From NCBI GenBank assembly GCA_040285855.1, contig JAUFOQ010000003.1, positions 1,860,001-1,924,000 on the forward strand: DNA of 64,000 nucleotides, in the 5' to 3' direction. Below, one piece after another: positions 9,541 through 61,157 of this stretch. The DNA is from Eukaryota sp. GEM-RC1. Taxonomy: Eukaryota. Each line of letters opens with the position of its first letter. Positions within the stretch are counted from its first letter, which is position 1. Position numbers and translations under genes: made by a program. The notes under the pieces are model-generated. The model saw only the letters and a list, made by a program, of their open reading frames with translations. It searched no databases and had not been told where the DNA came from.

Positions 9541-10290
9541 CTAATAATCAATATCCTCAAAGTCCAGATTGCCTATCTGGAAATTCTCACCTACCTTATC
9601 CTCATAATGTCTGCCAAGAGATAATAAAGCGCTAGATACAGAAGTCATCATACCTCTAAAGATAGCAAACACAGTTCGACTTTTCCAAAATCTAAGATCA
9701 AAAGTCCTAGATGTTTTTTCTTTTACAATCTTCACAAAGATTTTAATTAATGATGTTGCAGATTCACCTAAAGAACCGTACAGTGAAAATACAAAAGGGT
9801 ACAGCAAGTAATTCGAGTGTGAAGCCGAATTCAATAATTTCAACTTAGCACAATATTTTTCTTTTTTAAATTTTTCACCAATCAACAGAGGGTTTTTAGC
9901 CTTAGATTTAGCAAGTTTCTTGTTGGAACCATTACAAACGTCGATAGACATAACATCAGCAATAATGAAAGAACCATCGAAACCAGGAAATATGACATCA
10001 CCTCGGCTATTTCCAAACGACTTGTTAACATCCGTATCATCAACCAACCCAGCCAAAACTGGTTCTAAAAAGGAAACTATTCCATTAGATTTACACATAC
10101 AATATAATTGATTCCTTACTGAATCATGAACCTTACTTCTAAAAGCAATAAAACGGTTACAATTCAATAGATGTGTAGGTGTTACAGATTGCCCACATTG
10201 GCATTTCAAATTATGTGGAAGATTATCAGGCCAAATAAATGACTGTAAACGCATGTTTAATGACCAAAAGTTATCATCAAGAAAATACAA
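9541..10290 (-). mobile_element. 5'-truncated RLE-type non-LTR retrotransposon remnant
   Basis: CQCGQSVTPTHLLNC zinc finger, RHD-like KVHDSVRNQ, and RLE motifs RGDVIF...IIADVMSID...EKFKKEKY...YPFVFSLYG. Close to the copy at 33.4-35 kb. Confidence 0.85.
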
Positions 10291-10663
10291 CTCAGAGATA
10301 ATAGTTGTTGTATTTTTGAAAGATCACGACTGATATACATCATTTTACCGAAGGGTTTTCTTTTCAAAGTATATTCATCAGAAGATTATACATTCAACAA
10401 AGTTTGAAGTGTAGATATCATTCTAGTCATCAAAATAGATGTTGATAATTTCACAGTCTTCAGATTGTTTTGGTAGAGTCTGAATCCATGTAGATTTCAC
10501 CTATTCTTTAATTGATTCAGTTCTCTCAGGTGTCCACCAATTCCACTTGTCTGCTGTTGAAGCAGCCACTGAAGCAACAGAAGGTATTAGATTAGGATCC
10601 TATTAGTAGTAGTAGATTTATTTATTAGAGTTGTCTTCTTTTTTTCTTTTCAAAAAAATCTCA

Positions 10664-11712: not shown

Positions 11713-12783
11713 ATGTCCACACATGTAGAACTTATTCCTTTTCTGTCTGATGACAATCCCAAAGTTAGAGAATTGGCAATACGTGAACTTTCGTCATTTA
11801 CTACTTCTGTTGATCTCTGTTACTCTTTGGTCACACATGGAGTACTAAAACCAGTCGTATCACTCTTAGCTGACAGCGATCCCAATGTTGTACACTTTGC
11901 TATAACAATACTTATCAATATTTCCGCTGAGCAAGATCTTCTCTCTCAGTTAATCAATTCTGGTCTCGTTTCGGTTCTCATGGAGCATATAATGTCCAAC
12001 TCACAATGGCCATTCCTTCAACTTGCTCTCATGCTTCTCTCAAACCTCTCAATTTCTGAAGAAGGAAGTCAAACATTAATGCAGGAGAACTCTAATCTCG
12101 AAGGTTCTTTCATCATTAAATTGCTAGTAGAGATGGCCAAACCAGTGTCATCTGATTCCGATAAATGCTCTTTCATTCCTCAAATCATAGCCAACGTGTC
12201 ACGTCTGAGTTCCTTCAAGAATCTTATTCTGATACGGCAACCATCTCTATTGGAGTTTGTACTGGAGCAACTAACATCATCCAACATTAGAAGAAGAGGC
12301 GGATCGGTGGCAACTCTAAGAAATCTTTTATTCTCAGAAGATTGTCATTTGGAACTTCTTACCGACCCAAAAGATTTAGTTTGGAACAGTTTGAAGCGTG
12401 GACTTTCAGTTAAAAATCTTGAGAGTGATCCATATATTCTCTTGTTATTGGCTGAGTGCTTGTTTCTGTTGACTTCAACGGAAAAAGCAATGAAGATTCT
12501 AAGAGATTTTGATGTTGAGGAACTTATTAATGAGCTTATGTCTCATCTTAATGACGATAGCAATCAATTTGATGATTCTGACCGTGTTGAAGTTTGTTCG
12601 ATTCTGGAAAAGACTTTAAAAAGACTAGATGATTATAACTTTGTTGATGTTCAACTTGTTACTGACAAGGATCCTCTAGAACCTAAAAGTATACCAAAAG
12701 TTGATGTGGAGAAGCATGATTTTGAAGAAAAAGGTGGTGAAATTCCTGATGAAATGGAATCGTTCATGGCAGAATTGGAATAA
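11713..12783 (+). CDS. HGH1: HGH1 (eEF2 chaperone, ARM-repeat protein)
   Basis: ELIPFLSDDNPKVRELA N-terminus, IRRRGGSVATLRNLLF and ESDPYILLLLAECLFLLTST motifs typical of Hgh1. Confidence 0.75.
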   Translation: MSTHVELIPFLSDDNPKVRELAIRELSSFTTSVDLCYSLVTHGVLKPVVSLLADSDPNVVHFAITILINISAEQDLLSQLINSGLVSVLMEHIMSNSQWPFLQLALMLLSNLSISEEGSQTLMQENSNLEGSFIIKLLVEMAKPVSSDSDKCSFIPQIIANVSRLSSFKNLILIRQPSLLEFVLEQLTSSNIRRRGGSVATLRNLLFSEDCHLELLTDPKDLVWNSLKRGLSVKNLESDPYILLLLAECLFLLTSTEKAMKILRDFDVEELINELMSHLNDDSNQFDDSDRVEVCSILEKTLKRLDDYNFVDVQLVTDKDPLEPKSIPKVDVEKHDFEEKGGEIPDEMESFMAELE

Positions 12784-21300: not shown

Positions 21301-24300
21301 AGCAAGGAACGGTCCCATAAATAAAGCACGAATATTTGAAAAATCAACATCAACTATTGACTTTTTCAAATCTTGGTACAACCACATTTTAAAAGACAGA
21401 ATATGATCAGATTCTTGAACCAGAGATTTTAACATATATGGATAACAATTAGACAAAGGGTTACTCACAGATATTGAGTTCAGAGTGGAAGCAACATGTA
21501 ACAACTCACTAGCCATTAGAACATGAACGGATAAAGAGGAAACTTCAATTGTGGAGTAGAAGAGGTGGTCGACACTAGAGGAATCCGAGTGGAATCGTTC
21601 TAAAACAAGCTCGAACTTACCGAGATCAAAATTGATTGACATTTTGGGTTTGATTGAAGTGGTTGCTTCTGATGGTGCAGCGACTACTTGTTCATCAGCA
21701 CTTTCCTCTTCTGTAGTGAGTTCAGCTGCAGCTGGATCACCAGCAAGAGGTTCTAACAGCTTGCTGACGTTTGCATTAATGCGATTGAGTTCTCCTATAT
21801 AGCTCAAAATAAGAGGTGGGTCAAAATACACGTGGACATTCGCCATTTTCGCTGTCAAGGCCATAGAAAGTGGACCATTCTCCTCATCTTCATTATAACT
21901 AGGGTGTCCGACTTGATACTGAACTCCAGAAGCTACCAGGGCATGATTACCCTCACTCTTAAACTCGGTTTTACTTGCGTGAACAGGTGCCAAGGAGGGA
22001 AGAGTTCCAGTGACAGACAGCAGGGTTCTAGGTGAGTGATTGTGGTCAGATTTGTTGATGATTGAGATACTCGACAGAGAAGCAGAGAACGCCAGGTCTT
22101 TGCGTCGGATGATGGTAGTCGCAGTGACGTGGCTGAGGTCAAAATCAAGGATTGGACGATCAGTCCAAAACTCAACACGTATTCCATCAAAAGAAAAGTT
22201 GATTGTAGACAAGGCTTGTTCTAAAACTAATGACGTGGTCGTGGTGACAGAAGCTTCCTGTCCATGGTCTTCCTCTGAAGATGACGTGTACAGCACAGTA
22301 GCCTCATCATGGGAAATGTCAACAGAGTAAGTTGGAGCAGGGGATTGAGGAGGTGGGGGACTATCTGGCGTGATTGATTGTTGAATGACTGTGAGGAGTG
22401 ATAGAATGTCGTAGATGACCTCTTCTTTGATTGTGATTTCAATGGGGGTCATATTGAGATCAATGATTGACAGAGGGTTGAATATGTCTTGTTTTGATAT
22501 ATTAGCCTTAACTGAACCATTAATCCCAAGTCCTTGAAACAAGGTAAACTCTTCCTTGTACTTTACAAGACTGGTTGACATGTTAGAGAAGCCGAGGATG
22601 ATAGAGTCGTAAGCAGCTGCAACTCCCGATACTAAGGAGTTTCTAGACTCCACTTTAGGGTCAATTGTAACAGCGAGTTTACCTAGAACCAGTTTTAAAC
22701 CATCCATGGCGTCATAATCAACAAATGAAGTGTCGTAGAGTCTATAAGGAACGTGAATGATTGGTGAGGCTAAGTTCAACTCAACTTCCAAAGCTGATCG
22801 ATTATCCACCGCAGACTGTACTCCCGCAATGGTCCTACTCTTAATATCTTCAAAGGCACTGTAGAAGGCTTCCCCTACAATGACAATGTCAGCTTGAGAA
22901 GGGGGTGAGAACTGAGAAGCTAGAGTGAGGAGGGTGGGGAGATCAGCAATGATGGAGAGGGGTTGGAGGGAGCAGGAAACAGACATGTCTACCCCGGGTT
23001 TATCCTGGGGTGTTAAATCCAAGTGAAATTTGAATAATTGCTTGGAGCTTTTGATTCCAGGGTCTTTTGCTACAATTGTTTGGTAGCACTCAGTGTTTTG
23101 AGGCGCTTGAACAGTCAAGTTTTGTAACTTAGTCATAAAAGACATTGATCCAGTTCTCATGGACAGTCCAGATACCATTGAGATCAAATTAAGATTCAAT
23201 AAAGACTGGTCATGTTCATTGAGAAGGTTTAAAGTGATTGAATTGAAAACAATCTGGACACGTGTATGGATATACGTGGGTGGAACGTCAGCCAATCCAA
23301 GAGTATCAGTGATTGACTCGCTGATTTCAAGAGAATTTAAAATTTCTTCTTGCTCCTCTGTTGATAGCAAAGCTTGTTTATGATCCTTGCGTTCCTTTCT
23401 AGACAAACTTCCTGAAGGATGCTCAGCTTCTCTTTTTGAATCTGAACTGCTAAGGCCCGATCAGCTTTTGTTCTAAGATAGAGAATGTCATCAACTGGTA
23501 ACAACTTCTCAATGGACTTCATTCTCTCCTTGTCCTTACTTGTCAGGGATGGTAAAAGGACACTTCACGAGATCGTTGGAACAAAGGAATGTACTCTACG
23601 CCAAGAGTTTTTCTTCTGACAACAGCGGAAAACGAGCGGTTTCTCCTGCGCTTCCTAATATCTTCTCTCGTGACATTGATTGCATACAACCACCAACTTC
23701 TAGGAGACCGTTTGACAGAAACTCCTGGTCTTAGATGAACATGTTCAGTCATTTTCCCAAAGCGAGAGAGACCGTCGAGCAATGAGTAGACACGTTTCAT
23801 TTGGAGTAGAAGAAAGAGAAACATCTAAAGAAGGAGATTCAGTATCATCAAGAGCTAGACGAATATCAGCTTTAGGCTTAGTCCAACCATCGTCTTTGCC
23901 TGCATCTTTGCATATAGCTAATTTGAGACTGAAATGAGTGGGAGAAAAGATCCAGGAATGAGTTGAGTTCAACAGCTGAGATTTGAGTCTATTGAAGACA
24001 GCAGGATTTTTCAAGTTGTCAGGTGCTGTCATCTGATGACTAGCTGCCAGCTCATCACAGTACACAGATAGACCTTCTACTTGAACTAATTTGAAGAGAC
24101 GTTCGAGGGAAGAAGATAAAGTTGCAGCTTTCCAGTCTTCTCCAGCACTGATGACTGTTAAGCCTCTAAGGATAAATCCAAGTGAGTAAGGATCACCAAA
24201 GTTAGGAGATGGGTCTTCAAAGCGGATGTGGAGGTTATGGAAGTTTACTTGAATGTTGGCCACGATTGTAGCTGCAAGAGAGGCAATACGGCCAGGAGAC

Positions 24301-24719
24301 TTTGCTTTTCCTTCATCAGCAGCATCAATGGCGTCAGATCGAGACTTTTCATACAGATCCAATTTTTCTTGCTTTTCTTGTTCCAGATCGGCAGTGGCTT
24401 TTGATGCTGCATTCTCACCAAATTCGATTGAGCTTTTGGGCGAGAGAAGTAGAAAAACATCAGAGATATCAACTACCACAGGTTTTGATTTAAGCTTTGT
24501 CCATGACACTTTTATGTCTAACTTGCCTAGGACTCCACGCCTGACAGCAAAGAAGGGATGAAGATCAGAGAAAGCATCAGGTTTGATAGAGAGATTAGAA
24601 AGAGCGATGTTTCCAGAAAAGACAGACATCTTCAAACTATCTTTATCCAGACCCTCGACATAGTTACCGAGGTACTTATCAATAAGATGGCGAGTGACAT
24701 CTCGAAGAACAGAGGTCAT
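15321..24719 (-). CDS. VPS13: VPS13 lipid-transfer protein, ~3130 aa, broken into 6 ORFs by 5 single-base frameshifts
   Basis: Chorein-N start (YLGNYVEGLDKDSLKMSVFSGNIALSNL...NIQVNFHNLHIRFED), PRSWWLYAI motif, and the C-terminal Gly-rich ATG2_C-like region plus PH-like end. Frames rejoin with +/-1 nt at ~23805, ~23555, ~23435, ~18120 and ~17762. No introns are needed. Confidence 0.92.
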
Positions 24720-24989
24720 TCAATTGGGTCGAATTTTAGTGTTAGTAACAAATTGGAAGGTCTTCTGTTTTCAGGCTTCAGTGATGACGTGTCCTGTATA
24801 CAAGATTCTCTTAATCATAGTCTCTATTAAACTTTGGACATAAGTAGAAGATTGAGCTCAGAAAACGAAAGGTAACACTTGATTTAAGATGGAGATATCA
24901 AATTGTAGGTACATGTAGTTTATAGAAAAAACAGAAAAATAGGTATTGATGATGACGGCACTTGTACATTTATCAGTAGACAAATCACA

Positions 24990-26741
24990 CTATTCAAAAG
25001 TATACAAAAACATTTCACCATTCCATTGTCTTGAAACCTTGGAAAACTTACCAGAAAGTGCAGGATAAGCGTTATCCACGGCATAATTGGCAGACATATC
25101 ACTAAGAATAGTATCAACAGTATGAACACAATCAGATTTGATTGCGTCCTTGAACTGTGTCACAAAGTCTAGCGCTGTACCAGACAAAAACTTACCCTCA
25201 GAAACAATAGATTCAACAATTCTAGATACAGAATTCACCTCGTTTGCTGCTAATTTACCATCTTGAACACCAGGCTGATCGTAAGCATTGATTCTATGAA
25301 GAGCACCCAGAGCTGAAACTATACGTTCTTCAAGGGCGACCAACAGTCCAATGGCGTATTCATTGCGTTCTTCTAACTGAACGGACATCCATTGACGTCC
25401 ATTTTTAGTTAACGCAGACTGTGTTCCTTGGACAAAAGCCACCAACTGTCTACCCATTGATCCAGCCTTAGCATTAGAGAAATCGAAATGACGTTTCCTG
25501 AAAGAAACAAATCTAACAAACGCATCATTGATTCCCTTTTGAACTTGTTGCATAAACGCATGTTGTTCAGACGTACCCTATAATAAGAAAGTATCAAACA
25601 AAACATACCACTCCTCCAAACACAGTCAACCCATAAGGATAGGGAACACCATCAACATCGTACTCCTTTCCCAAGGATTCCATGTAAAGCTGTTGAAGGT
25701 AATGCGACCATTCTTTTAAAAAAGTCAGAGTACCCTAATACAATCATGTTCTTATGTCCTTCTCTTTTAAAGAAGGAGTCTATACCCAAAGCTACTAGTA
25801 AAGCAGGATTACTGCGGAGGTCAGGATTTCTGGTGAGGTCATCCATATCACATTGGCCTCTTAGGAAGTCAGCAAAGTTCAATTGGGCAAAAGCAGCAGG
25901 AACCATACCAATAGCACTGACAATACTGGTTCTACCTCCAGTTTCTTCGTCCCTTTGGTTAGAAATAGATAAAGAAGATCATACATGTGCCAGATGAATC
26001 GATACTTCTCTTTTGAGCTTTCTTATCAAATGGTGAGCCAGGAGTGGTAATAGCACAATTACGACAACCAACGTCTAATCCTGCCTTCTCTAGCATTGAA
26101 ACAAAAGCTACAGTTGGAAACAGTGAGGGACATACCATCAAGATTGCCTGCAGTTTCAGCAGTGGATCCACTCTTGGACATGTGAACACATAGAGTGGAT
26201 TCAAGAGACAGCTGGTTGAAAAGAAGTGCGAAAGATTCAGGATCGGAGTTGGAAACGAAATGGATCTTCAGAGGGAGGTTGTGGTTGAAGTTTTCACCAA
26301 GTTGAGAGATGATGAGCATCAAAGGACCAAGGAAGCTGCCACCGATACCGTTAAACACGACATCAGTAAATACATGTCCTTCAGAAGATTTTCCACCCTG
26401 AAGAATTGAAGAAACATCAGCTAGTACCTTTTGGTTGTAGTCCAAGGATCGTTGAAGACTTTTTTGATGGAAAGTTATCTTCTCCCATCGGGTTTTTGAT
26501 GCGATGGTTGAAGTGATCGACTTTCCTGTTTTCCGATTCAGATGCAACAGCAGTTGCTATGATAAAACTATATCTGGAACACACAGTTTACAGGTTTGCC
26601 TGTTTCAGTAGCTTGAATGTTTGTGAGGATGCGTTCAATGGCATATTTATAACGAGACTCGATAGAAGAGAGGTCTGCTAAAGGAGCGAATCCAGAGTAG
26701 TCAAGGGTGAAACCAGTTTTGCAGTCGTGAAATTGATGCAT
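24990..26741 (-). CDS. GPI: Glucose-6-phosphate isomerase, 4 short introns
   Basis: Motifs ENRKVDHFNHR, GIGGSFLGP, SKSGSTAET, GGRTSIVSAIG, QQLYMESLGK and INAYDQPGVQDGK. GT-AG introns at 26557-26584 (28 nt), 26108-26135 (28), 25953-25984 (32) and 25578-25608 (31). Three homopolymer frameshifts at ~26462, ~26012 and ~25720. Confidence 0.92.
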
Positions 26742-27496
26742 TAGAAGTAGTTTGAGAAGTACTACTGTTGAATTCATTTGGGGTGCATACTCCCCAAAAT
26801 CATTTTACCCCAAATACTCTTCACCCCATAACCACATCCCCAAACTGATTCACTTATACCTTCTTTGATGGATTCCATACATCGTTTGATATCCAGTGTT
26901 GAGCTTCTTTCAAGATAGAGACGTGTTTGCAGGTATTCGTTCTTAGACTTGTGAACCGTGTTCATCCATGTCAAGAATAAAATCAACGTTGTACAACCAT
27001 CTTACAACACATACATCACATTGACATCTTATCCTCCCAAGGAAAACATTAAGGTTTGCTTCATGAAGCTTCATGCATCAGAAGACACAAAGACACCAAG
27101 TTATAACTACATGTACAACATTTGTAACTACAACATTTGGTGATACAACATTTGTAATGACAATAGTGTCGTATGTGTAATGAATTGTTGACATTGATAT
27201 TTTTTTTCTTCTATGGCCAACAAGAAGAATTCAACTTCTACTGCATGCTTATCAGCAAGCTTTACAACAAGTTTCATATATGTTTTGATGGTACGGGAAC
27301 GACTTTCTTGTTCAGAAGTATTTCTGAGTTTGAAGATTGAGTAGGACATGGGAAATTCTGGTATAGACTTTATTACAGATTTCGTTTTTTAACACGTGAA
27401 TTCACACACACATGTCCATTACAGTCTGTGTGGGATTTCATTTTCCTTCCTCCTACAGTATAAATGTCGTTTGTTCTGCATCCAAACAGATGTTGT

Positions 27497-27930
27497 CCGC
27501 CATCCTGTCCTTATCTGACTCAACTTGTGACTGTTTCCATTGCACGGTTTCGGGCTCAGTTGAGTTTAGATAAGGACAGTTCTTTCCCCTCCACTGCCGT
27601 TGCTTCTCCCTCTACTGCCGTTGCTGTGATGACTGCCGTTGCTTTCCCCACTGCCGTTGCTGTGATGATGCCGCCATTCTGTCCTTATCTGACTCAACTT
27701 GTGACTGACTCCATTGCACGGTTTCGGGCTCAGTTGAGTTTAGATAAGGACAGTTCTTCTCCTCCACTGCCGTTGCTTCTCCCTCTACTGCCGTTGCTGT
27801 GATGACTGCCGTTGCTTTCCCCACTGCCGTTGCTTCGATAATGCCGCCATTCTGTCCTTATCTGACTCAACTTGTGACTGACTCCATTGCACGGTTTCGG
27901 GCTCAGTTGAGTTTAGATAAGGACAGTTCA
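27497..27930 (+). repeat. Tandem repeat (period 174/173 bp, 2.5 units), each unit carrying a 75-nt hairpin
   Basis: Hairpins at 27505-27579, 27679-27753 and 27852-27926. CTGTCCTTATCT pairs with AGATAAGGACAG (12 bp) and ACTCAACT with AGTTGAGT (8 bp). They are separated by (ACTGCCGTTGCT)-type subrepeats. Confidence 0.95.
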
Positions 27931-27963
27931 TTCTGTGTTTTATCAACACATACATTTGTTGCC

Positions 27964-30288
27964 ATGAAGTACTCGTCTCCCCTGTTTATCCCTTCCCATC
28001 CTCCGTTCCCAAAAGACCTCACCGCTGATGGTGATATTGAATCCAATCCAGGACCCGTAACTCAAGAAGCCATAAACTCAGTTTATCCTCATCAATGGGT
28101 TGATGACGAAGCGATAGTGGAGTACTGTAAAGTGATATTTCAAGAAGCAGAGTTAGACTTTGAAAGCATGTTTATCCATCCGACCACATGGCTTCAATAC
28201 ATTGTTTCACCAGATGTCCCGCTAGATCAATGGTTGTTGACGAAAATTCAGCGAAATCAAAGAACAAACTCCAAATACCTCTTTGTTCCCCTTAGTGATA
28301 CCATGACTAGAAATGCTAATTATTCCAGAGAAGGTGTCACTGGTTCTCATTGGGGTTTAGCCATTATAGACTGTTGTGAAAAGGAATGGATCTTCATTGA
28401 TCCAATGTTAACTAGCGAAGATATGAGTAAGTCTATGGTAAAATCAGCTGTAGACATATTATCCGAAGTACTTGTGCCATGGGGGTATGTTTTCCGTTAT
28501 GTGCCTGTGACTAAAACACAGTCTGCTAACGACTGTGGAGTTTATGTCATTGCGTATATTCAAAAATATGTTGAACTTTTTAAAAGACTCACGTATGTTC
28601 CGCCTCTGATGTATTTGGAAACTTATTTGGTCCAAGTGAACAATGAACTTCAAGCAGACATATTTCGTGAAAAAATTCTGGATGTATTGTCTCAACAAAG
28701 GACACTTTATCTACAACAACGTCAAACCACAGTAGCTCCTATTGTACCATCGTTACCCATTCAACCTCCTGCCGGTAAAGAACATCCAACCACTTCAATT
28801 CCTCTCACAGGTTCACGTCTTGCTAGCACTAAAACATCTACTGGTTTAAGCACTAAAAAAAGGAAAGCCAAAATTTCAGATGTTCCATCACCACGAGGTT
28901 CACCTTTAATTAAACGAAATAAATTTAGAACTACCAGCTCCCTTGTTTCAACTGGTGACACTCCAATACGAAAGACTCACCGCCGTATGTCCACATTGGA
29001 ATCATCTGAAGTACCACCATCTGAATTGCCTCCATCACCATCTGAACTACCACCATCTGAACTACCACCAAAATCACAGGCCTCCATTATGTCGTATCCA
29101 TCGCCAATTCAAGAAGAAATTCATAAAATGGAAGTAAATCTACACACTGAGCCTATAGAAGAAGAAATACAAATTCAAGACTTTCTTAAATCCCCTCTAC
29201 TTTGGAACAATCTACCAACTTTTTGTTTAATTCATGTTCAAAGTGATTTTGCCAAAAAAGAAAGAATTAATGGCAGAAATGTTCAACTTGTTCAAGAAGA
29301 TGATGATGACATTGAAACTGTTGAAGGTGAAGCTGAAGATCAATTAGAAGTTAAACGTGATTCTTCTGTTGATCCTATTGTATCAATTTCCATCCAGATC
29401 ATTGATCACAATGAGCTAAATGAAAAGCATTTATTTTCTCATGGCAATTTTGATACTTCAAACTTGGATTTGTGTACTTTACATATTTCAGATAGTGAAT
29501 CCAGTATGCTTAAAAACTTCATTTCCTTCATTACTCAACATTGTCCACGATTGTTTGTGAGTTATGACTTTCACTTAGATACATTTCCCTTTCTTGTATC
29601 ACGTTGTCAAGTCCTCAAAATCAATACAACGTTTACTTTTCCAGAATTTAAACCCTATATTCCCTTTTGGTTAAACAAATGGTGTAAGGAAACAACTTTT
29701 GGTCCGTTTTTTAGTCTCGATTTGAATGCTGTACTGAAGAATTTTTATGTCTTTACTGGTGGCCGTTTTTTGGAAAATGTTGTTCAAATTTTTCTTGAAA
29801 TGAATAATTTTTCTAAAAATGAAACTGTCAAACGCTTGGAAGATCTTAATCATGACTCTGATCCTGATGAAGTTCAATTGGTCAATAATGTCCAAAACTT
29901 GCATGGCATAATTGACAGTATTAATGTTTTAGTTCCAGACAATCCCAAAGTGAAGGTCGATAAGATTAAAAAGAAATTTGTAAGAAATTTGGAGAAAGTA
30001 AATGAACTTTGGGCCAAGGAATCGACAAAACCGCTATTGTTGATCAACTCAATTCAACAATTGCCTCTGATTGAGTACTTGTTGGCTGACCTATTGGATC
30101 CCAAAAAACAAACATTACGTTCAAAGTCACCAATGAAAGTGGTTAAGAAACGACTAGACAATGTTGTATCCAAAGTGAAGGTTAAATTTATTGAATCTCG
30201 TGTTAAGAGAGCTCATCAAGTACGAGTCCGTAGTACTCTCTTTTTAAAACATTTTTTGTTCATAATTTTCAACATTCTGGTATTTTAG
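27964..30288 (+). CDS. 2A peptide + Ulp1/SENP8-like C48 cysteine protease + degenerate family-B DNA polymerase 3'-5' exonuclease-like domain (probable 5' exon of the Fanzor gene)
   Basis: GCCATGA start at 27964, then DLTADGDIESNPGP. Protease motifs QWVDDEAI, LFVPLSD, GSHWGLAIID, FIDP and QSANDCGVYV. Then DPIVSIS...DSESSMLKNFISFITQHCPRLFVSYDFHLDTFPFLVSRCQVLKI, which resembles the PolB exo DPIIQIS...SE.ELL..F..FI...PD...GYN...FD.PYL..RA pattern. Confidence 0.8.
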   Translation: MKYSSPLFIPSHPPFPKDLTADGDIESNPGPVTQEAINSVYPHQWVDDEAIVEYCKVIFQEAELDFESMFIHPTTWLQYIVSPDVPLDQWLLTKIQRNQRTNSKYLFVPLSDTMTRNANYSREGVTGSHWGLAIIDCCEKEWIFIDPMLTSEDMSKSMVKSAVDILSEVLVPWGYVFRYVPVTKTQSANDCGVYVIAYIQKYVELFKRLTYVPPLMYLETYLVQVNNELQADIFREKILDVLSQQRTLYLQQRQTTVAPIVPSLPIQPPAGKEHPTTSIPLTGSRLASTKTSTGLSTKKRKAKISDVPSPRGSPLIKRNKFRTTSSLVSTGDTPIRKTHRRMSTLESSEVPPSELPPSPSELPPSELPPKSQASIMSYPSPIQEEIHKMEVNLHTEPIEEEIQIQDFLKSPLLWNNLPTFCLIHVQSDFAKKERINGRNVQLVQEDDDDIETVEGEAEDQLEVKRDSSVDPIVSISIQIIDHNELNEKHLFSHGNFDTSNLDLCTLHISDSESSMLKNFISFITQHCPRLFVSYDFHLDTFPFLVSRCQVLKINTTFTFPEFKPYIPFWLNKWCKETTFGPFFSLDLNAVLKNFYVFTGGRFLENVVQIFLEMNNFSKNETVKRLEDLNHDSDPDEVQLVNNVQNLHGIIDSINVLVPDNPKVKVDKIKKKFVRNLEKVNELWAKESTKPLLLINSIQQLPLIEYLLADLLDPKKQTLRSKSPMKVVKKRLDNVVSKVKVKFIESRVKRAHQVRVRSTLFLKHFLFIIFNILVF
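28015..28056 (+). other. 2A/StopGo ribosome-skipping motif DLTADGDIESNPG^P
   Basis: Exact match to the D(V/I)ExNPGP consensus, encoded by GAT ATT GAA TCC AAT CCA GGA CCC at 28033-28056, in frame with the protease ORF. Confidence 0.88.
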
Positions 30289-30299
30289 GTTACATTCAG

Positions 30300-33009
30300 A
30301 AGTTACTGCCTGCTACTGTTCCAAATGTAACTGTTAAGGAAGAAATGAATTCTGATACAGATGAGTCAACTGAAGAAGAAACAGATGTACATTCAGAGTC
30401 TATCGATGCTACTGCTCCTCCCGTTAAATTAGAAAATATTGAAGATGCGAGTGGTGAACCTGAACCTGACCTTTGGACTAAAATTCAAACTTCCAAAATT
30501 GAATTGCCAGACTGGAAGAATTTTTTACGTTGAAATCAATGGAACAAGTGTTGTCTATGATGACGATTAGGGACTACAAACTTGTAAACAATCAGAATCA
30601 TATTAGGACTGTACAAGAATCTTTAGAAAACATAATTTCTAACACAAATGATGACTCAACTCAAAATCAGTTTGCTCAACATTTCTTGATGCATTACATT
30701 CCTCGTTTAGAACTAGCTGCTCGATCTGTTGGACTTGATAGGATTGTGTTTCCCAGTAGCCTCAATTTATCTCCTATATTGCATTACATGGCTACTGAAA
30801 TTATAACGAATTACAAGACTAACATGAGTGAACACTTTCACGAATATGTTTTTCAAGTATTTAATTTGGTTACCCTGAAAAAGAAAAGACTTAACAAGCT
30901 TACTGATAAGAATCAACGACAAGAGTTGTGTACAAAGCTTAATGAAGTCAGACAGTTGATCATTAATGGGGAAATTTCAAAAATTAATTTTCAAGATGTT
31001 GAAGTGTTTCCTGATCCCAATTCTAGACTGAGTTTACTATTTTTTAACTATTTGTTTACTTTTTTTGAAGGTAAAATGGAAAAAACAATCTATTATGCTG
31101 AAAAAGTAGATCCTTTGAAATTCTTAAGTCATGCAGTGTATTTGAAACGTCTTGTTGAAGACTCTTGTACTGGTGTTACTGCCAATAATCCTTTTCCTCT
31201 GACAAAATCATTGATTCCTAATCATATCAGATTGGATACTACATGGTTTAAAAAAGTTTATGCATCAGAAATTAAAGGTAGCTTTGATGACGTTCGAAAA
31301 GATATTTGGCACTCAGTTTTGAAACCAAAGTTTCTTCCAAAGTCATTGTCTCATGACTTCAAATACAGTTCCATTTCTACAGATGGAGTTAGCTGTAGTT
31401 TAATGATGATGCGGAAAGATCTGCTTGATGGGAGAGGAAATCCTCATAAGAAGGTGAAAGCTGTTGACTACACAGCTACTGAAAGGTACATTGATTCTTT
31501 GAGTTCCACAGAAATTCAAAACTTAAATTCGAAATCAAAAAGAATTGTTGCTATTGATCCTAATCAGCATGATTTGATGTATTGTGCTTCTTTAAAATCT
31601 AAGGAGGAAAAGAAAATCGAAGGTTTCGATACATCAGCCAATCTCAGAAGAAGAAAGATTTGTCCAAAATCGTCAAAGAAAAAAGGAAGCTTGAAAAAAT
31701 TAAAAAAGGAATTGAAGGATTGGAAAGACGCACCTACTATTGACAAACCATCAACTGTCAAGTTGAAAAATCGAGACAATTGGAAAGTATTCAGATACAC
31801 TGCTGGGGAACGCAATGCCGATATTAAAAAGTCTCCATGGAAAAGAAAAAAACAAGGAAGGAAAGAAAAAGAGCTAAGAGAAAGAAGAGGAAGCTGGAGA
31901 AGAAAATAAGACGATACAATCTCCACCGTTTATCTGAATCCGAACGGTTACAACAATATTCTACTCAATTTATTCACATTCCAGATGGCAGACGCATTGA
32001 CATAAATGGGCAACAAATTTTAGATCAATGGGGCTCTAACTCGCCAGGCAGTAGATCTTGTGATTTGACTCAGTATTCTGATTTTGTTCTTGGTAAAGAA
32101 ATTACCTGTTCTTTATTACGATCACCCACTACTGATCAAAGAAATACTGAAGGAATTTACGAAGAAAAGTGGTTTAGGAGGAATCGTCTCACACAGTATT
32201 CAAGAAAGGAACGAAGTGAGAAAAACATGCTTCACAGATTTGCTCTCCAATTTGGTAACCCAGATGAAGTCGTTGTTGGGTATGGAGACTGGAACGACAC
32301 TACTTTTCGTCGAAGAAGAGGTAAAGCATCTACTGTAAAAGGTGCTTCAATTCGGAAATTATTGGGAAAATTTGGATTTAAAGTGTTCCTAGTTGATGAA
32401 TTTAAGACCAGCAAATGTTGCTCTGCATGTGTTTCCAGAAACGACGAAGGTATCTGTTCCAATCCTGAAAGGATAAAAGTCACTGATCCTCATTGGAAGA
32501 AGAAGTTACAGAAGGAAGAGAAAGAATTAAAAAAGGAAATTATGGAACACAATCACTTAGACAATATTGTGGAGCGTAACTTTGATGAAGAATGGACTGA
32601 CCAGTTGCCATTTTCGAAAGAAAGATTGAAGAACAACAAAGTCTCACCATGGGGCTTAGTTGAATGTGCTAAATGTCATGTCCTCTGGAATAGAGACTTC
32701 AACTCTGCTATCAATATTTACAATATTGTAAATGGAACCATTCAAGGTCAAGGTAGACCTGCCATCCTCGAGAGACCAAAATCTCAAACAACACCTGTCG
32801 TGGATGGCGGGAATACAGATCAGATTCCTAAGAAAAAGACTGTGAGTAAGGGTAAGGGTAAGGCAAAACGTCCTCCAACAACTGTCAGAGGTCCTAACAA
32901 GTGTCGTATATGTTCTCAACCTGGACATAACAAAACAACTTGTCCAAATAAGCCTAAGAAAGATGTACCCAAGGACTCACACGTAAACCAGAAAGATCAG
33001 GAATCTTGA
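30300..33009 (+). CDS. Fanzor1: Fanzor1 (eukaryotic TnpB-family RNA-guided endonuclease) with C-terminal CCHC zinc knuckle; two -1 frameshifts in homopolymer runs
   Basis: Fanzor1-type motifs TNYKTNMSEHF, FPLTKSLIPNHIRLDT and SISTDGVSCSL. RuvC-I IVAIDPN (Asp at 31556); VGYGDW followed by the relocated Glu in VDEFKTSKCC; CSAC...CAKC zinc finger; RuvC-III WNRDFNSAINI (Asp at 32695); CRICSQPGHNKTTC at 32902-32943. Frames join with +1 T at 30521-30526 and +1 A near 31825-31852. Confidence 0.9.
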
Positions 33010-33237
33010 ATCTATGAAGTTAGCTCGTTTTAAAAGACTTTGCGAATGAGGACTTTGTCAACTGTGGTTTATCTCATGAAAATGCTGAAGGGTTATGCCC
33101 TTATGCATTTGGAATGAAATTCACAGTACTAGAAGTTGGACAAGAAAACTTTGTATTTTCAAGTTGAGTCAGGTCGAGTACTGTCCTAGAATTCGTCTCA
33201 TTTGATTCATAAATCGAGTAAATGTTGATTTTACAGT
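33010..33237 (+). ncRNA. Putative omegaRNA (guide scaffold) of the Fanzor
   Basis: Lies directly 3' of the Fanzor stop and has nested helices: GCTCG 33023-27/CGAGT 33215-19; CGAATGAGG 33043-51/TCTCATTTG 33196-204; TTTGTCAACT 33054-63/AGTTGGACAAG 33134-44; ACTGTGG 33061-67/TCACAGT 33121-27; AAATGC/GCATTT and AAGGG/CCCTT within 33080-33110. The position matches known TnpB/Fanzor omegaRNAs. Confidence 0.7.
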
Positions 33238-33317: not shown

Positions 33318-35032
33318 TATATGGATGACATTTCTTTTATTGCTCCTATGTCAACTCTTCGTATTATTGCGAATCAGGCTGCTGATTTGTACGATGCTAT
33401 TGGACTTCAATTAAATGTGCAAAAATGTTTTTGATTGCCAAGGTACCTGTAACTTTAATTGTCAATTCTTTAGAGGTTCCCTTTGTGAACTATTTATCTT
33501 CAAGCTTTAGATTTCTAGGTTGTTATCTTGGTTCACATGACAACATTGTTAAAGATCTGAATGTATATTTGGATTCAATGCGAAAAGAATTAGATCAAAT
33601 TAAGGAATTACAATTGGAAAAACATCTCAAATTCTTTATGCTAAAAATTTGTTATTCAGGAAAAGTTACCCATCTGCTTCGATCTCTCCCCCCTGTACTT
33701 ACCTATAACTTCTGTAGAAGCTTTAACAAAATTCGTACTGACTTTCTTGCATTTTTGTTATCAGTGGATCCTGCTGCTTTGAACAATCACATCTTCCCAG
33801 ATCCTCATCTTGGTGTTATTGGTTTCACTTCGTCTAAATGGTGGACCAAATCTGCTTTCATTGGTGGTGGTAAGAATTTTGTCTTTGAGTTCTGTAGACG
33901 GTACCCAAGTCAAGAAAATCTTCTTGTTTCGACAAGTAGTTTTTTCTTGGTAAATTTGAGATCAGAATTGTCACTAATTTCACCTGACCTCTGGCAAACT
34001 TGTTTTCCAGCAGATATTTGTGAAATACCAGAACGATGTGTCACCTCGTTAAAATTTGCTCTTAAGAAACTCCAAAAAGACCTTTTAAAACATTTTGAAT
34101 GTCTGCATTTTAAAATTCGACTTGGCTCGGCCAAAGAAAAAAATCCAGCTTTCGCAAATTTTTTAATCGATTTAAAGGACAGTTCTTCAGTTGCTTTGAT
34201 TAACCAAATTCCTCAGATCTATGGTTTGTTGTTGAATGATCATCAATGGACTACAACATTCAGACTTCGATGTTTCTTGTGGCCCTCTAATTTACCCAAT
34301 GATCTTCAATGCAAATGTGGTAAATTAGTTACTTTTTCTCACCTTTTGAGTTGCAATCGTTTCATTACTTATAGAACTTGTATTCATGATGCTGTTAGAG
34401 ATCAAATTCATGCAATGTGTAAGTCCTACAAAATCGAATCTTTCGTTGAGCCACTGTTGAGATCACTGGAAATCAATAATTCAAAAAATAGTGATTCTGA
34501 TAAGACTTTTGGTAAACGAAGAGCTGATGTTATAGTTCCATCAGTTAATGATGAACTAACCGTTGTTGATGTGATTACTGTGGATGTTTGCAAAAAAAGT
34601 GCTTTCAAGGATGCTAAAAATGAAGTTTCTCCACTGAATTCTTCAGAACAGTACAAGAGAAACAAATATGATGAACCACTGACTGCTCTCAAACTTATTG
34701 GACATGTTGAGTACAAATTATGTCCTTTTGCGATTTCAATTTATGGTCGACTTGGTAGAGATGCTCTTTGTTTTCTCTCTGATTTTGAGAAAGTGGTCAA
34801 AAAAGAATGAACAAGAAATTTGATTTCAAATTTTGGTTGAATCGTATTGTTTTTACAATATTTAAAACAATTCCCATCATGATTTCAAAATCTCTATTAG
34901 CTCTCAGTGTTTTTTATGAAGAAAAAGCTGATGTGAGTTTTAATGGCAATGATTGTTGCTTTAATGATATTGAATTCTAGTATTTGTGTTTATTTTAATG
35001 TTTTTAATAAAGATAAACATCACCAAAAAAAA
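33318..35032 (+). mobile_element. 5'-truncated RLE-type non-LTR retrotransposon (RT C-terminus, zinc finger, RLE, 3' UTR)
   Basis: Begins at the RT motif YMDDISFIA (33318), then GLQLNVQKC and FRFLGCYLG, CKCGKLVTFSHLLSC, and RRADVIV...VVDVITVD...EQYKRNKY. The reading frame ends at ~34980, followed by AATAAA and a short A run. Confidence 0.88.
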
Positions 35033-35071
35033 TAATATTTATTTACCGAAAAGATGTTGGCTAACACACTA

Positions 35072-36602
35072 CACCGCTGACCTTAATTAATGACACTTTC
35101 CAAATTAATGTCACTTCACAATCAATGTCAGTGACAATCATTTAGGTTTGAGCAATTCTGAAAATAAGAGACATTAGTTACCAAGATCTTTCAGTGTTTG
35201 ATTTCTTCAACGCTAAGTCTCCATTTTTCTTAATGGCACTGAAAGTCAAGAAGAGATTATATATAACAACGATAATTCTACTAATACCTCAATAACACGG
35301 TTTTCGCCTGGTTGATATGCAGTTTTGATTTTACCAATTCGAATGAATCGTATCGCCTTACGATGTATATCCAGGTTAGATAATGGAACTACAGTAGACA
35401 GGAAGAACATTCAATTGTGTCATGAGATCGGAAACTATAAGGAGTTCTTTGATGACTGGTGTTTTCTTTATAAGTTGCTCGTCGAAAACAGAGTTGATTC
35501 AACAAATTCAGTGAAAATATTTTGGAACCTTTTTGAATTAATTGATTAAGGTCAGCGGCAGGCTTCACTAAAGTAGTCTAAAATTCAAAATTAAAGTAAA
35601 GTACTCTACTTTACTTTAAGCTCTCCTTTCCTTCAGCTAAAAAGTAACTTTAAGGTCAATAAAGTTTGACCTGATCTCAATCCTCTGACTCAGCGATGTA
35701 GTAGCTTCCAATATCTGTAAACTAAAGATTATGAGGCTTTAAATCAAACAAAATCTTCCTGACTTTTGAATTACTTCCAATGAAGATGATTCACTGATTT
35801 ATGGGATTCTGACGGTAATTTGATATTTGAAAAGCAACGTTAAGACGAAAACACGAAAACACACAAGATTATCTTATGACTAAATTTTCCAGTAGCAAAA
35901 TAATGGATGATCAGTTTTCGGCTTTGGATAATGCTGAAGATAACAAATGTCTTCGTAATTGTGCTTATATTTCTAAACTGAATTCACAAAGACAGAATGC
36001 TTTGGTGTTTCACTCATTCGGTCTTTCAATTTATGGGAATTTGGGTTCTGCAGCTCAAACCTGTTTGTCATCTTTTAATCAATTGTGTAGTGAATTTAGC
36101 AAGAAGTTTAACATTAATTTTTGGAGGGATCGTCTCGTTTTTTCTATATTTCGTTCAATGTTTCAGTATTTTGACAGAATTTTGAAGAAAGTCTTTGGCG
36201 TTCAAGACCAGGTCTTGGAATAGTATTGTTAATTTTGTTTACGTCTTTAGATTTTATGTATCTTTAAGAGATAAAAGATTTTGTTCCTTATAACTGATCT
36301 GTAAAACTCTACAGTTTATCCAGTATACCCATTTACTTTAAAATCATTTGGATCAGCTCATAAATCACGGTTAAAATGATCCGACTCAGAAGTTAAGACT
36401 AAAAAATAGATTGAGCTGAACGAACTTCTAATCCCAAACAATATCAACTTGTAGTTGTACTGTATTGCAGCATCAGCATAAACGAAAATTCAACTCTGAT
36501 GCTGAAGAAATCAAACACTGAAAGATGCTCCAAATTAATGTCACTGACGTTAACTCCGAAGTGAAAATACTTTGGAAGTGACGTGAATTAAGGTCAGGGG
36601 TG
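35072..36602. mobile_element. Non-autonomous Tc1/mariner/pogo-type composite element
   Basis: Imperfect ~28-bp TIRs, CACCGCTGACCTTAATTAATGACACTT versus the reverse complement of AAGTGACGTGAATTAAGGTCAGGGGTG, each flanked by TA. A third TIR copy is at ~35545-35558. Confidence 0.6.
35876..36223 (+). mobile_element. Short 3' fragment of an RLE-type non-LTR retrotransposon, nested in the Tc1-like element
   Basis: LDNAEDNK...FHSFGLSIYGNLGSAAQ...FWRDRLVFSIFR matches the C-termini of the other copies. Confidence 0.7.
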
Positions 36603-36716
36603 TAGACGACTCGGAATGTACAGGAAGTGATGTTTAACCTTGATTGTCAAAAGATATTTATACACAAAAATTAGACTTTTTAAAAAATCAAAGTCATACA
36701 GAAGAACGACACGTCA

Positions 36717-60026: not shown

Positions 60027-61157
60027 CATACTCCGTGGCTTAAATCGAGTCAATCATTAATAGATTTTACTACAGTTGATGTTTGTAACAAATCTTGTGT
60101 TAGTAGGATATTAGATTCTTCTTTTAATCCGTTAACAGCTGCTGAAAAGCTCAAACACTCCAAGTATAACTCTCAAGTAGAAGAATTAAATAGAAACTCA
60201 TATTCCAAATTTGAGTTTCATCCTTTTGCTGTTTCTCTTTTTGGATCTATTAGTCCTGCTGGTGATCAATTTTTCAAGGATTTCGAAGAATTGTGTAAAG
60301 AAAAGAAGCGTAAGTTTAGAATGGCTGAATGGAAAAACCGTATAGTGTTTTTCATATATCGGAATATCGATATGTCTTTCTATTTCTCTAGATTAATTGA
60401 GAAATGAGAGAGAGATGTTTATTCGGCACCCAATAAGGTAACCTTTCTACAAACTATGAAATTGTAAAAACAAACAAATAATACTAAGATTAAATCCAAA
60501 CGACTTCATCACCACCCGGTAAAAGATTACGTTTATCTACATGAACCTTCACACCAAACTTGTACAATTTCTCAATTAATCTAGAGAAATAGAAAGGCAT
60601 ATTCCGATATATGGAAAACACTATACGGTTTTTCCATTCAGCCATTCTAAACTTACGCTTCTTTTCTTTACACAATTCTTCGAAATCCTTGAAAAATTGA
60701 TCACCAGCAGGACTAATAGATCCAAAAAGAGAAACAGCAAAAGGTTGAAACACAAATTTGGAATATGAGTTTCTATTTAATTCTTCTACTTGAGAGTCAT
60801 ACTTGGTGTGTTTGAGCTTTTCAGCTGCTGTTAATGGATTAAAAGAAGAATCTAATATCCTACTAACACAAGATTTGTTACATACATCTACTGTAGTAAA
60901 ATCCATTAATGCTTGACTCGATTTAAGCCACGGAGTATGTAGATCCCCTCGTTTTTGATCAGTAAATTCATTTTCTGAAAGATGATTCAAAACTGAAATT
61001 GAGAAATTGTACAAGTTTGGTAAGAAGGTTAATGTTGAAAAACGTAATCTTTTACCGGGTGGTGATGAAGTCGTTTGGATTTAATCTTAGTATTATTTGT
61101 TTGTTTTTACAATTTCATAGTTTTGTAGGAATGTTACCTTATTGGGTACCGAATAAA
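60027..61157. mobile_element. Two near-identical 5'-truncated RLE retrotransposon copies, one (60406-60996, minus) inserted into the other (plus)
   Basis: The plus copy 60027-60405 resumes at 61008. The insert is flanked by the 11-bp duplication AATTGAGAAAT (60395-60405 and 60997-61007). The insert ORF has RGDLHTPW...MDFTTVDV...AEKLKHTKY. Confidence 0.88.

Follow-up and report, generated by a model that had tools for sequence, protein, structure and literature searches.

Three tandem hairpins lie upstream of a 2A motif and a Fanzor1 gene in the protist Eukaryota sp. GEM-RC1, and raise the question of whether such an array serves the DNA of the element that carries it, the RNA made from it, or the protein encoded behind it. 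We addressed this in a window of 64,000 nucleotides (contig JAUFOQ010000003.1, positions 1,860,001 to 1,924,000 of the forward strand), whose features are collected in the table. A previous sequence-only reading had described three tandem hairpins of 75 nt in 174/173-bp units, and both repeat detection and fold statistics show these to be real. Positions 27497-27934 form a tandem array of period 173 with 2.5 copies and 96% matches, the spacing of the units being 174 and then 173 bp, and in sense RNA the hairpins fold at -33.9, -36.2 and -36.2 kcal/mol in their order along the array (z -6.7 to -6.8), values that none of 200 shuffles equalled. The near-perfect stem of ~21 bp noted earlier is an outer stem of 21 bp that includes one G-U pair and one bulge, and the subrepeats noted between the hairpins are likewise present, as four ACTGCCGTTGCT subrepeats per spacer at spacings of 21, 18 and 18 nt. 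Spacer 1 has no significant fold (z -0.6). The array was rightly said not to be CRISPR-like, since its units are 94-98% identical throughout and variable spacers are absent. Self-BLAST found no second copy of the array inside the window, Rfam (known structured RNA families, including ribozymes) returned zero matches to the array at E up to 5 and, in agreement with this, inspection of the array by eye against consensus sequences revealed no hammerhead or twister core.

Features of the locus, with positions counted from the first letter of the window
Feature	Position	Strand	Remarks
Upstream shared segment	27073..27108	+	12 residues identical to the N-terminus of P0006; shared with one copy only
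Leader ORF	27464..28053	+	ATG at 27464 (TATAA before it), through the array to the 2A glycine
Hairpin 1	27505..27579	+	75 nt, 21-bp outer stem
Arm segment, 15 nt	27513..27527	+	14 of 15 nt complementary to 33160-33174; occurs again at 27687-27701 and 27860-27874
Spacer 1	27580..27678	+	Contains four 12-nt subrepeats spaced in frame; ATGs, also in frame, at 27629, 27665, 27668
Hairpin 2	27679..27753	+
Spacer 2	27754..27851	+	Shorter by one base; ATGs at 27802, 27841
Hairpin 3	27852..27926	+
2A (StopGo) motif	27997..28056	+	Ends DIESNPG/P; predicted from sequence
Ulp1/C48 protease domain	28255..28575	+	Pfam PF02902, E 3e-5
PolB 3'-5' exonuclease-like domain	29338..29631	+	Pfam PF03104, E 1e-7; Atlas score 0.92
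Fanzor1	30110..33009 (start approximate)	+	PF07282; RuvC D-E-D present; C-terminal zinc knuckle
Predicted omegaRNA scaffold	32974..33170	+	Overlaps the last codons; closing stem 32974-32979 with 33165-33170
Right-end segment	33160..33174	+	Complement of the 5' arm of the hairpins; predicted to be the end of the scaffold, not a guide

Other copies of the element were read through predicted proteins, not genomic DNA. We stored 122 proteins, 53 of them from searches with the 2A ORF and the clusters of their matches; 32 carry the 2A. NCBI names Eukaryota sp. GEM-RC1 for all matches of the two 2A-ORF searches and for 12 of the 13 matches of the Fanzor search; a related Fanzor (P0059) is named from a second organism. 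The array had been described as almost open in frame from ATG 27464, with one indel in unit 2, and this was confirmed: the frame is open bar one base lost near 27755-27763, a break that is bridged in frame elsewhere (P0015 and P0028 read S-S-S-P-S-T there), and the same leader is unbroken in P0015 and P0027. The 174-nt unit and all the subrepeat spacings are multiples of three, the frame runs on into the 2A, and the remaining two sense frames of the array contain stops; a stop-free frame arose in 7% of shuffles (P 0.07). In-frame AUGs stand 11-14 nt ahead of hairpins 2 and 3.

The motif GD(V/I)ExNPGP is complete in 30 of the 32 2A models, one of the others having T for I/V and one ending in R. 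The window splits the coding region behind it into three ORFs and breaks Fanzor1 by frameshifts; since other copies read across these breaks (P0018 the upstream ones; P0068, P0075 and P0076 the last), the protease, the exonuclease-like domain and Fanzor1 are likely to form one polyprotein. Fanzor1 proteins are described as having a RuvC D-E-D triad with the E six residues before the zinc finger, a TDG motif and a TNB zinc finger (PMC13565253, PMC10711439), and the translations contain AIDP, DEFKTSKCC, WNRD and TDG in addition to PF07282. The Fanzor, to which both the exonuclease-like domain and the Ulp1 protease are fused, is unusually large. A sister family contains a Fanzor1-PolB exonuclease-like fusion in a single ORF (P0100, a model with neither 2A nor Ulp1), and a second body type has two Ulp1-like stretches (P0007, P0036), P0036 looking mosaic between body types further downstream. 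A search with the 2A-Ulp1 alignment yielded five viral loci, which match at the 2A only. Virus-like contigs with two 2A motifs each (L114-L118) contain DLT(A/S)DGD words that resemble the window's 2A, a hint at its possible source.

The 2A models carry six types of leader. Type A, that of the window, occurs in 14 of the 32 models on nine contigs; its units measure 42, 46, 52 or 58 codons, and between one and three hairpins are visible in frame. Type B, a homologous leader with a changed loop, is present in eleven models and has 38-codon units, of which there are up to 8. The leaders of the other seven are unrelated and belong to four types (C-F), three being in-frame tandem arrays: types C, D and E (two models each) have arrays of 33, 76 and 27 codons, the repeat being missing from one model each of types D and E, and type F is a single model with no repeat. 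At least two units are in frame in half of the type A models (7 of 14) and in 7 of the 11 with type B; gene models reveal in-frame arrays only, so that an out-of-frame array would look like a single-unit start, and one hairpin is what the other 7 of the 14 type A models show. That the triplication is an assembly artefact, a case by which the sequence-only reading would have been refuted, or that it is neutral slippage, is scarcely credible: units 2 and 3 are nearly identical, but the units do differ, and copies on other contigs carry 2 or 3 units of differing length. The other such case, a dispersed MITE unlinked to Fanzor, is also disfavoured.

These leaders are not tied to particular proteins. 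Type B stands on three protein bodies and types D and E on two each (31 of 52 classed), and the type B copy P0025 and the type A copy P0001 have bodies that are 95% identical, as against 29-39% between different bodies. In P0002 the 2A itself is a mosaic, its first half like that of type E and its second half like that of A and B. Because six leader types are mixed with four bodies, and because of this mosaic, we take the 2A, as read from the gene models, to be the join between leader types and body types, and we infer that it has acted as a crossover patch. By the same evidence the leader is one of several interchangeable types, which the sequence-only reading had missed. The Fanzor C-terminal clusters have 26, 14 and 13 members. 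No relative of P0015 was found among metagenome contigs (0 of 28 candidates). We also discarded as chance the occurrence of the 15-nt stem word in 77 viral stretches, all of which are single matches, none longer than 25 nt.

Comparison of types A and B, which align gap-free over the hairpin, indicates what is kept in the leader. The type B DNA was deduced from protein by fewest changes, not read; in this form its hairpin has 20 of 90 positions changed, mostly in the loop, and retains a fold of -35 to -37 kcal/mol, compared with -20 +/- 4.7 kcal/mol for controls with 20 random changes, of which 2 in 1000 were as good. The deduced RNA folds better in sense than in antisense (-35 to -37 against -22 to -27 kcal/mol). 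Type A DNA folds without strand bias (-18.7 against -18.4), which is neutral between readings. Since the amino acid is altered at most loop codons, the peptide sequence does not seem to be what is kept, whereas the structure and the frame apparently are. A stem could also be perfected by palindrome-correcting repair, with no selection involved. For types C-F a hairpin was not demonstrated, the back-translation test (types B-E) being one that gave even its type A positive control only z 1.6. It is very improbable that the repeat peptide released by the 2A is a functional product. Its frame is kept open and it would be released, but between A and B nearly every loop codon encodes a different amino acid, the leaders of types C-F are unrelated, and no look-alike of the leader peptide in the Atlas scored above 0.76.

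The sequence-only reading had placed the array at the 5' end of the element. We find the hairpins to be internal, because 14 codons (41 bp) upstream of hairpin 1 are common to five further copies and the upstream shared segment, ~430 bp left of the array, is common to one, P0006, a copy with a type B leader. The sharing of this segment suggests that the element reaches at least 430 bp to the left. A 15-nt repeat (27114-27163, 3.4 copies) lies inside the upstream shared region. Further left, at 26777-26860 and immediately upstream of the start of phosphoglucose isomerase, are a GC-stem hairpin and three CCCCAA words, which could be the promoter of that gene or the left end of the element.

The hairpins have a counterpart at the predicted right end. 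Positions 33160-33172 are the exact reverse complement of 13 nt in each 5' arm (14/15 with one more step), and 33160-33174 is the window's best complement to the hairpin by two measures. Such matches do arise by chance, since there are others at 12651 (14/15) and 34175 (an exact 14-mer); given two 14/15 matches outside the array in 64 kb, one would land at this spot by position about once in 1000. The arm is the sole good match to the right end within 24000-28100, and the codons involved in the match are conserved between types A and B. For type B a match of 11 nt to the right end is possible, and 3 of 150 shuffles were as good; for types C-F the match is not beyond chance. Fanzor1 omegaRNAs lie at the right end of their elements and extend 14-15 nt into the variable flank. 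The fold predicted for the scaffold here (z -2.7) was equalled by 2 of 200 shuffles, and a free fold of 32968-33175 took up the layout of the relatives with 33165-33170 in the closing stem, such a stem being expected by chance in ~3% of cases. An alternative fold closes at 33187, and both folds put the arm match inside the scaffold. An 8-nt word like the hairpin base follows the right-end match (33180-33187), and can pair with 32972-32976 in the alternative fold.

The nearest relatives with DNA, at ~30% identity, are Mariner-type Fanzor1 elements of giant viruses (PGv-1-like; L083, L106, L108, L110, L112). Their predicted omegaRNA layout is similar, with the right inverted repeat as scaffold end; unlike the window, they have terminal TIRs with a TA duplication and ORFs of ~650-710 codons. 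Among 36 related Fanzor1 loci, seven have TIRs of 23-41 nt that end at this scaffold position and two others have chance-like 13-mers; none of the 36 has a 2A motif or an upstream array. The TIR word is absent from the ends of three related loci (L078, L079, L080), in which a short stem-loop follows the stop. The scaffold of nine selected relatives combines a closing stem with a small hairpin and a long stem, and ends at the right repeat; covariation supports this structure, hand-drawn from the same sequences, with 89% pairing and 7 pairs changed on both sides. A covariance model of these nine omegaRNAs missed the window's scaffold, which is about twice the model length (best match E 0.13, elsewhere), so that the scaffold boundary stays a prediction. 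A consensus fold including the window's sequence gave no structure.

The right-end match is the chief reason to consider that the hairpins are reiterated DNA end signals, either asymmetric inverted repeats of the Helitron2 type or copies of a Mariner-like TIR, served by a transposase in trans, with an open frame that is merely tolerated. Its position, the lack of another good match in 24000-28100, the conservation of the matching codons and the seven related loci with TIRs all speak for this, as do the Fanzor1 genes reported inside Helitron2 elements (PMC3627910). Helitron2 elements and Helentrons are described as also having a short inverted repeat, with its 5' copy in a hairpin and its 3' copy near the right end, as well as internal tandem repeats and, in some cases, captured proteases (PMC3627910, PMC4067079); in the window too, an asymmetric inverted repeat, within the 8-15 bp typical of theirs, has a 5' copy that pairs into a hairpin. 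Unlike theirs, however, this 5' copy is internal and triplicated. The Helitron2 5' repeat is placed 0-2 bp from the end (PMC3627910), and in Helitron2 and Helentron elements together it is expected within 0-4 bp of the 5' terminus. Here the stem begins 8 bp before the arm, and the shared sequence at least 41 bp, probably 430 bp, before it. The 3' repeat is followed by weak stems only, with no clear 3' stem-loop; no target-site duplication flanks the 13-15-nt match, which is itself internal; types C-F do not share it; and Pfam revealed no Rep/Helicase, nor any RepHel partner, in the window ORFs scanned. On balance we consider end signals rather unlikely.

Because its catalytic residues are present, the nuclease would cut its own element if 33160-33174 were a Fanzor guide directed at three sites in its own leader, as in autorepression or a leader arms race. 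The 15-nt match equals the Fanzor1 guide length reported (PMC10432273), this segment is the best complement to the hairpin, and type B differs at the would-be seed. Self-targeting is nonetheless quite improbable, as both predicted folds place the segment in the scaffold, the relatives' scaffolds end in the same TTCAAG word and closing stem, and in the characterised SpuFz1 loci the guide is described as variable flank (PMC10432273). Hardly more probable is a role of the hairpins as precursors of small RNAs, with the 5' arm acting to silence the omegaRNA or mRNA of the element itself. The 75-nt hairpins, 21-bp stems and G-U pairs on the sense strand would suit this, and the arm pairs with 33160-33174 at -21.9 kcal/mol, but the open frame and the 2A would be left unexplained.

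A different comparison is offered by the 5' ends of mouse L1. The monomers found there are non-coding, and a tether separates them from ORF1. Mouse L1 shares with the present family a variable number of tandem monomers and a history in which one body has repeatedly acquired unrelated 5' ends (PMC3600994); unlike those monomers, the window's units are in frame and have conserved hairpin folds. If the units were promoter or enhancer monomers of this kind, each with a start site and AUG, the hairpin and its complement would be secondary. This would account for the L1-like pattern of changing monomer number and 5' replacement (PMC3600994, PMC9022269), the in-frame Met in each unit of types A, B, C and E, and the varying number of 12-nt subrepeats. 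It is an unlikely explanation, which does not account for a fold conserved with a changed loop or for the open frame; moreover, a TATAA stands upstream of the array, and the frequency of TGA(C/G)TCA outside the array is that expected by chance (9 seen, ~8 expected).

The explanation we prefer, to which we give about an even chance, is that the array is an RNA leader, translated, structured and open to exchange, which tunes the output of Fanzor and which the 2A discards. Less likely are all of the alternatives discussed above, namely rolling-circle ends, promoter monomers, precursors of small RNAs and a guide that targets its own element. Among the options of the sequence-only reading, the best fit is a structured leader linked to the 2A ORF: many copies have the array in frame with the 2A, and the fold is kept between types A and B. 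The left ends of an HUH element fit poorly, with internal hairpins and no Rep/Helicase in the ORFs scanned, and have the 14/15 inverted match as their one advantage. In the leader that we propose, ribosomes would start at an AUG just ahead of a hairpin and be slowed while melting it. At the 2A the Gly-Pro bond would be skipped and the leader peptide cut away, and the product would be a uniform protease-exonuclease-Fanzor protein starting with Pro, so that leaders could expand or be swapped without altering the protein. Unit number would shift by unequal recombination, with the near-identical 2A coding patch as the site of crossover between leaders. The hairpin arm would likely be what is left of the element's left inverted repeat, or that repeat put to another use; the leader explanation does not by itself need the right-end complement, which types C-F do not match beyond chance.

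A bolder version, which we regard as a long shot, would make the array a ribosome-operated switch between messenger and guide RNA. A melted hairpin would free its arm to pair with the omegaRNA end of the same transcript and block scaffold folding until the nuclease had been made, the 2A would discard the peptide, and leaders would be swapped at the 2A to retune the switch or escape it. Predicted energies are consistent with such a device: opening the arm costs 18.9 and opening the scaffold end 10.5 kcal/mol, the duplex gives 21.9, and invasion by the arm would cost ~+7.5 kcal/mol with the hairpin closed and gain ~11 with it open. A switch of this kind would be useful because TnpB is reported to cut omegaRNA out of its own mRNA (PMC10278001).

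The feature is real and conserved, and represents a variant of the Fanzor1 element, not a separate kind of system. The Fanzor1 elements MCi-2 of Mucor and CRe-1/2/3 of Chlamydomonas are likewise described as multi-copy and transposase-less, with a conserved 3' part and exchanged 5' parts, but the account of them we drew on mentions no fusion to 2A, protease or exonuclease and no in-frame tandem leader, whereas the present family exchanges at the 2A (PMC3627910). N-terminal 2As reported in non-LTR retrotransposons (L1Tc, ingi, CR1, Crack) have the same GD(V/I)ExNPGP near the N-terminus of a transposon polyprotein; in contrast, the window's 2A belongs to DNA-transposon cargo without reverse transcriptase, and the peptide upstream of it is repetitive and 42-336 residues long, as against ~40-80 in the non-LTR elements (PMC3708506, PMC3894237). 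A Fanzor with a 2A, an Ulp1 fusion or an exchangeable tandem leader was not found among the top-ranked results of our literature searches; the supplements of Fanzor surveys may contain similar loci. With one body, six leaders and 1-8 units, the family provides a natural test series for how Fanzor and TnpB elements limit their own nuclease and apportion a single transcript to mRNA and guide RNA. N-terminal 2As in transposons may, as the family further suggests, serve to uncouple an evolvable 5' module from the protein and to mark the crossover site. Were the leader merely tolerated repeat DNA, it would still be an unusual architecture in a poorly studied protist lineage.

Several other repeats and mobile sequences were noted in the window. 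We considered, and dropped, an assignment of the leader to the reverse transcriptase downstream, since by eye none of 14 named members of the reverse-transcriptase cluster is within 10 locus tags of the Fanzor C-terminal models, 29 of which were listed. The fragment of reverse transcriptase that runs from 33321 appears to be a separate insertion. Positions 33321-34810, a member of a 17-member cluster, and 9541-10323 are truncated pieces of non-LTR retrotransposons with YMDD, zinc finger and restriction-like endonuclease motifs, which we take to be CRE/R2-like. Inverted repeats of 20-24 nt (35069-35088/36586-36605 and 35186-35209/36503-36526) surround a 130-codon frame at 35069-36605, probably a small DNA transposon, and at 60027-61157 there is an inverted duplication of ~380 bp with 95% identity.
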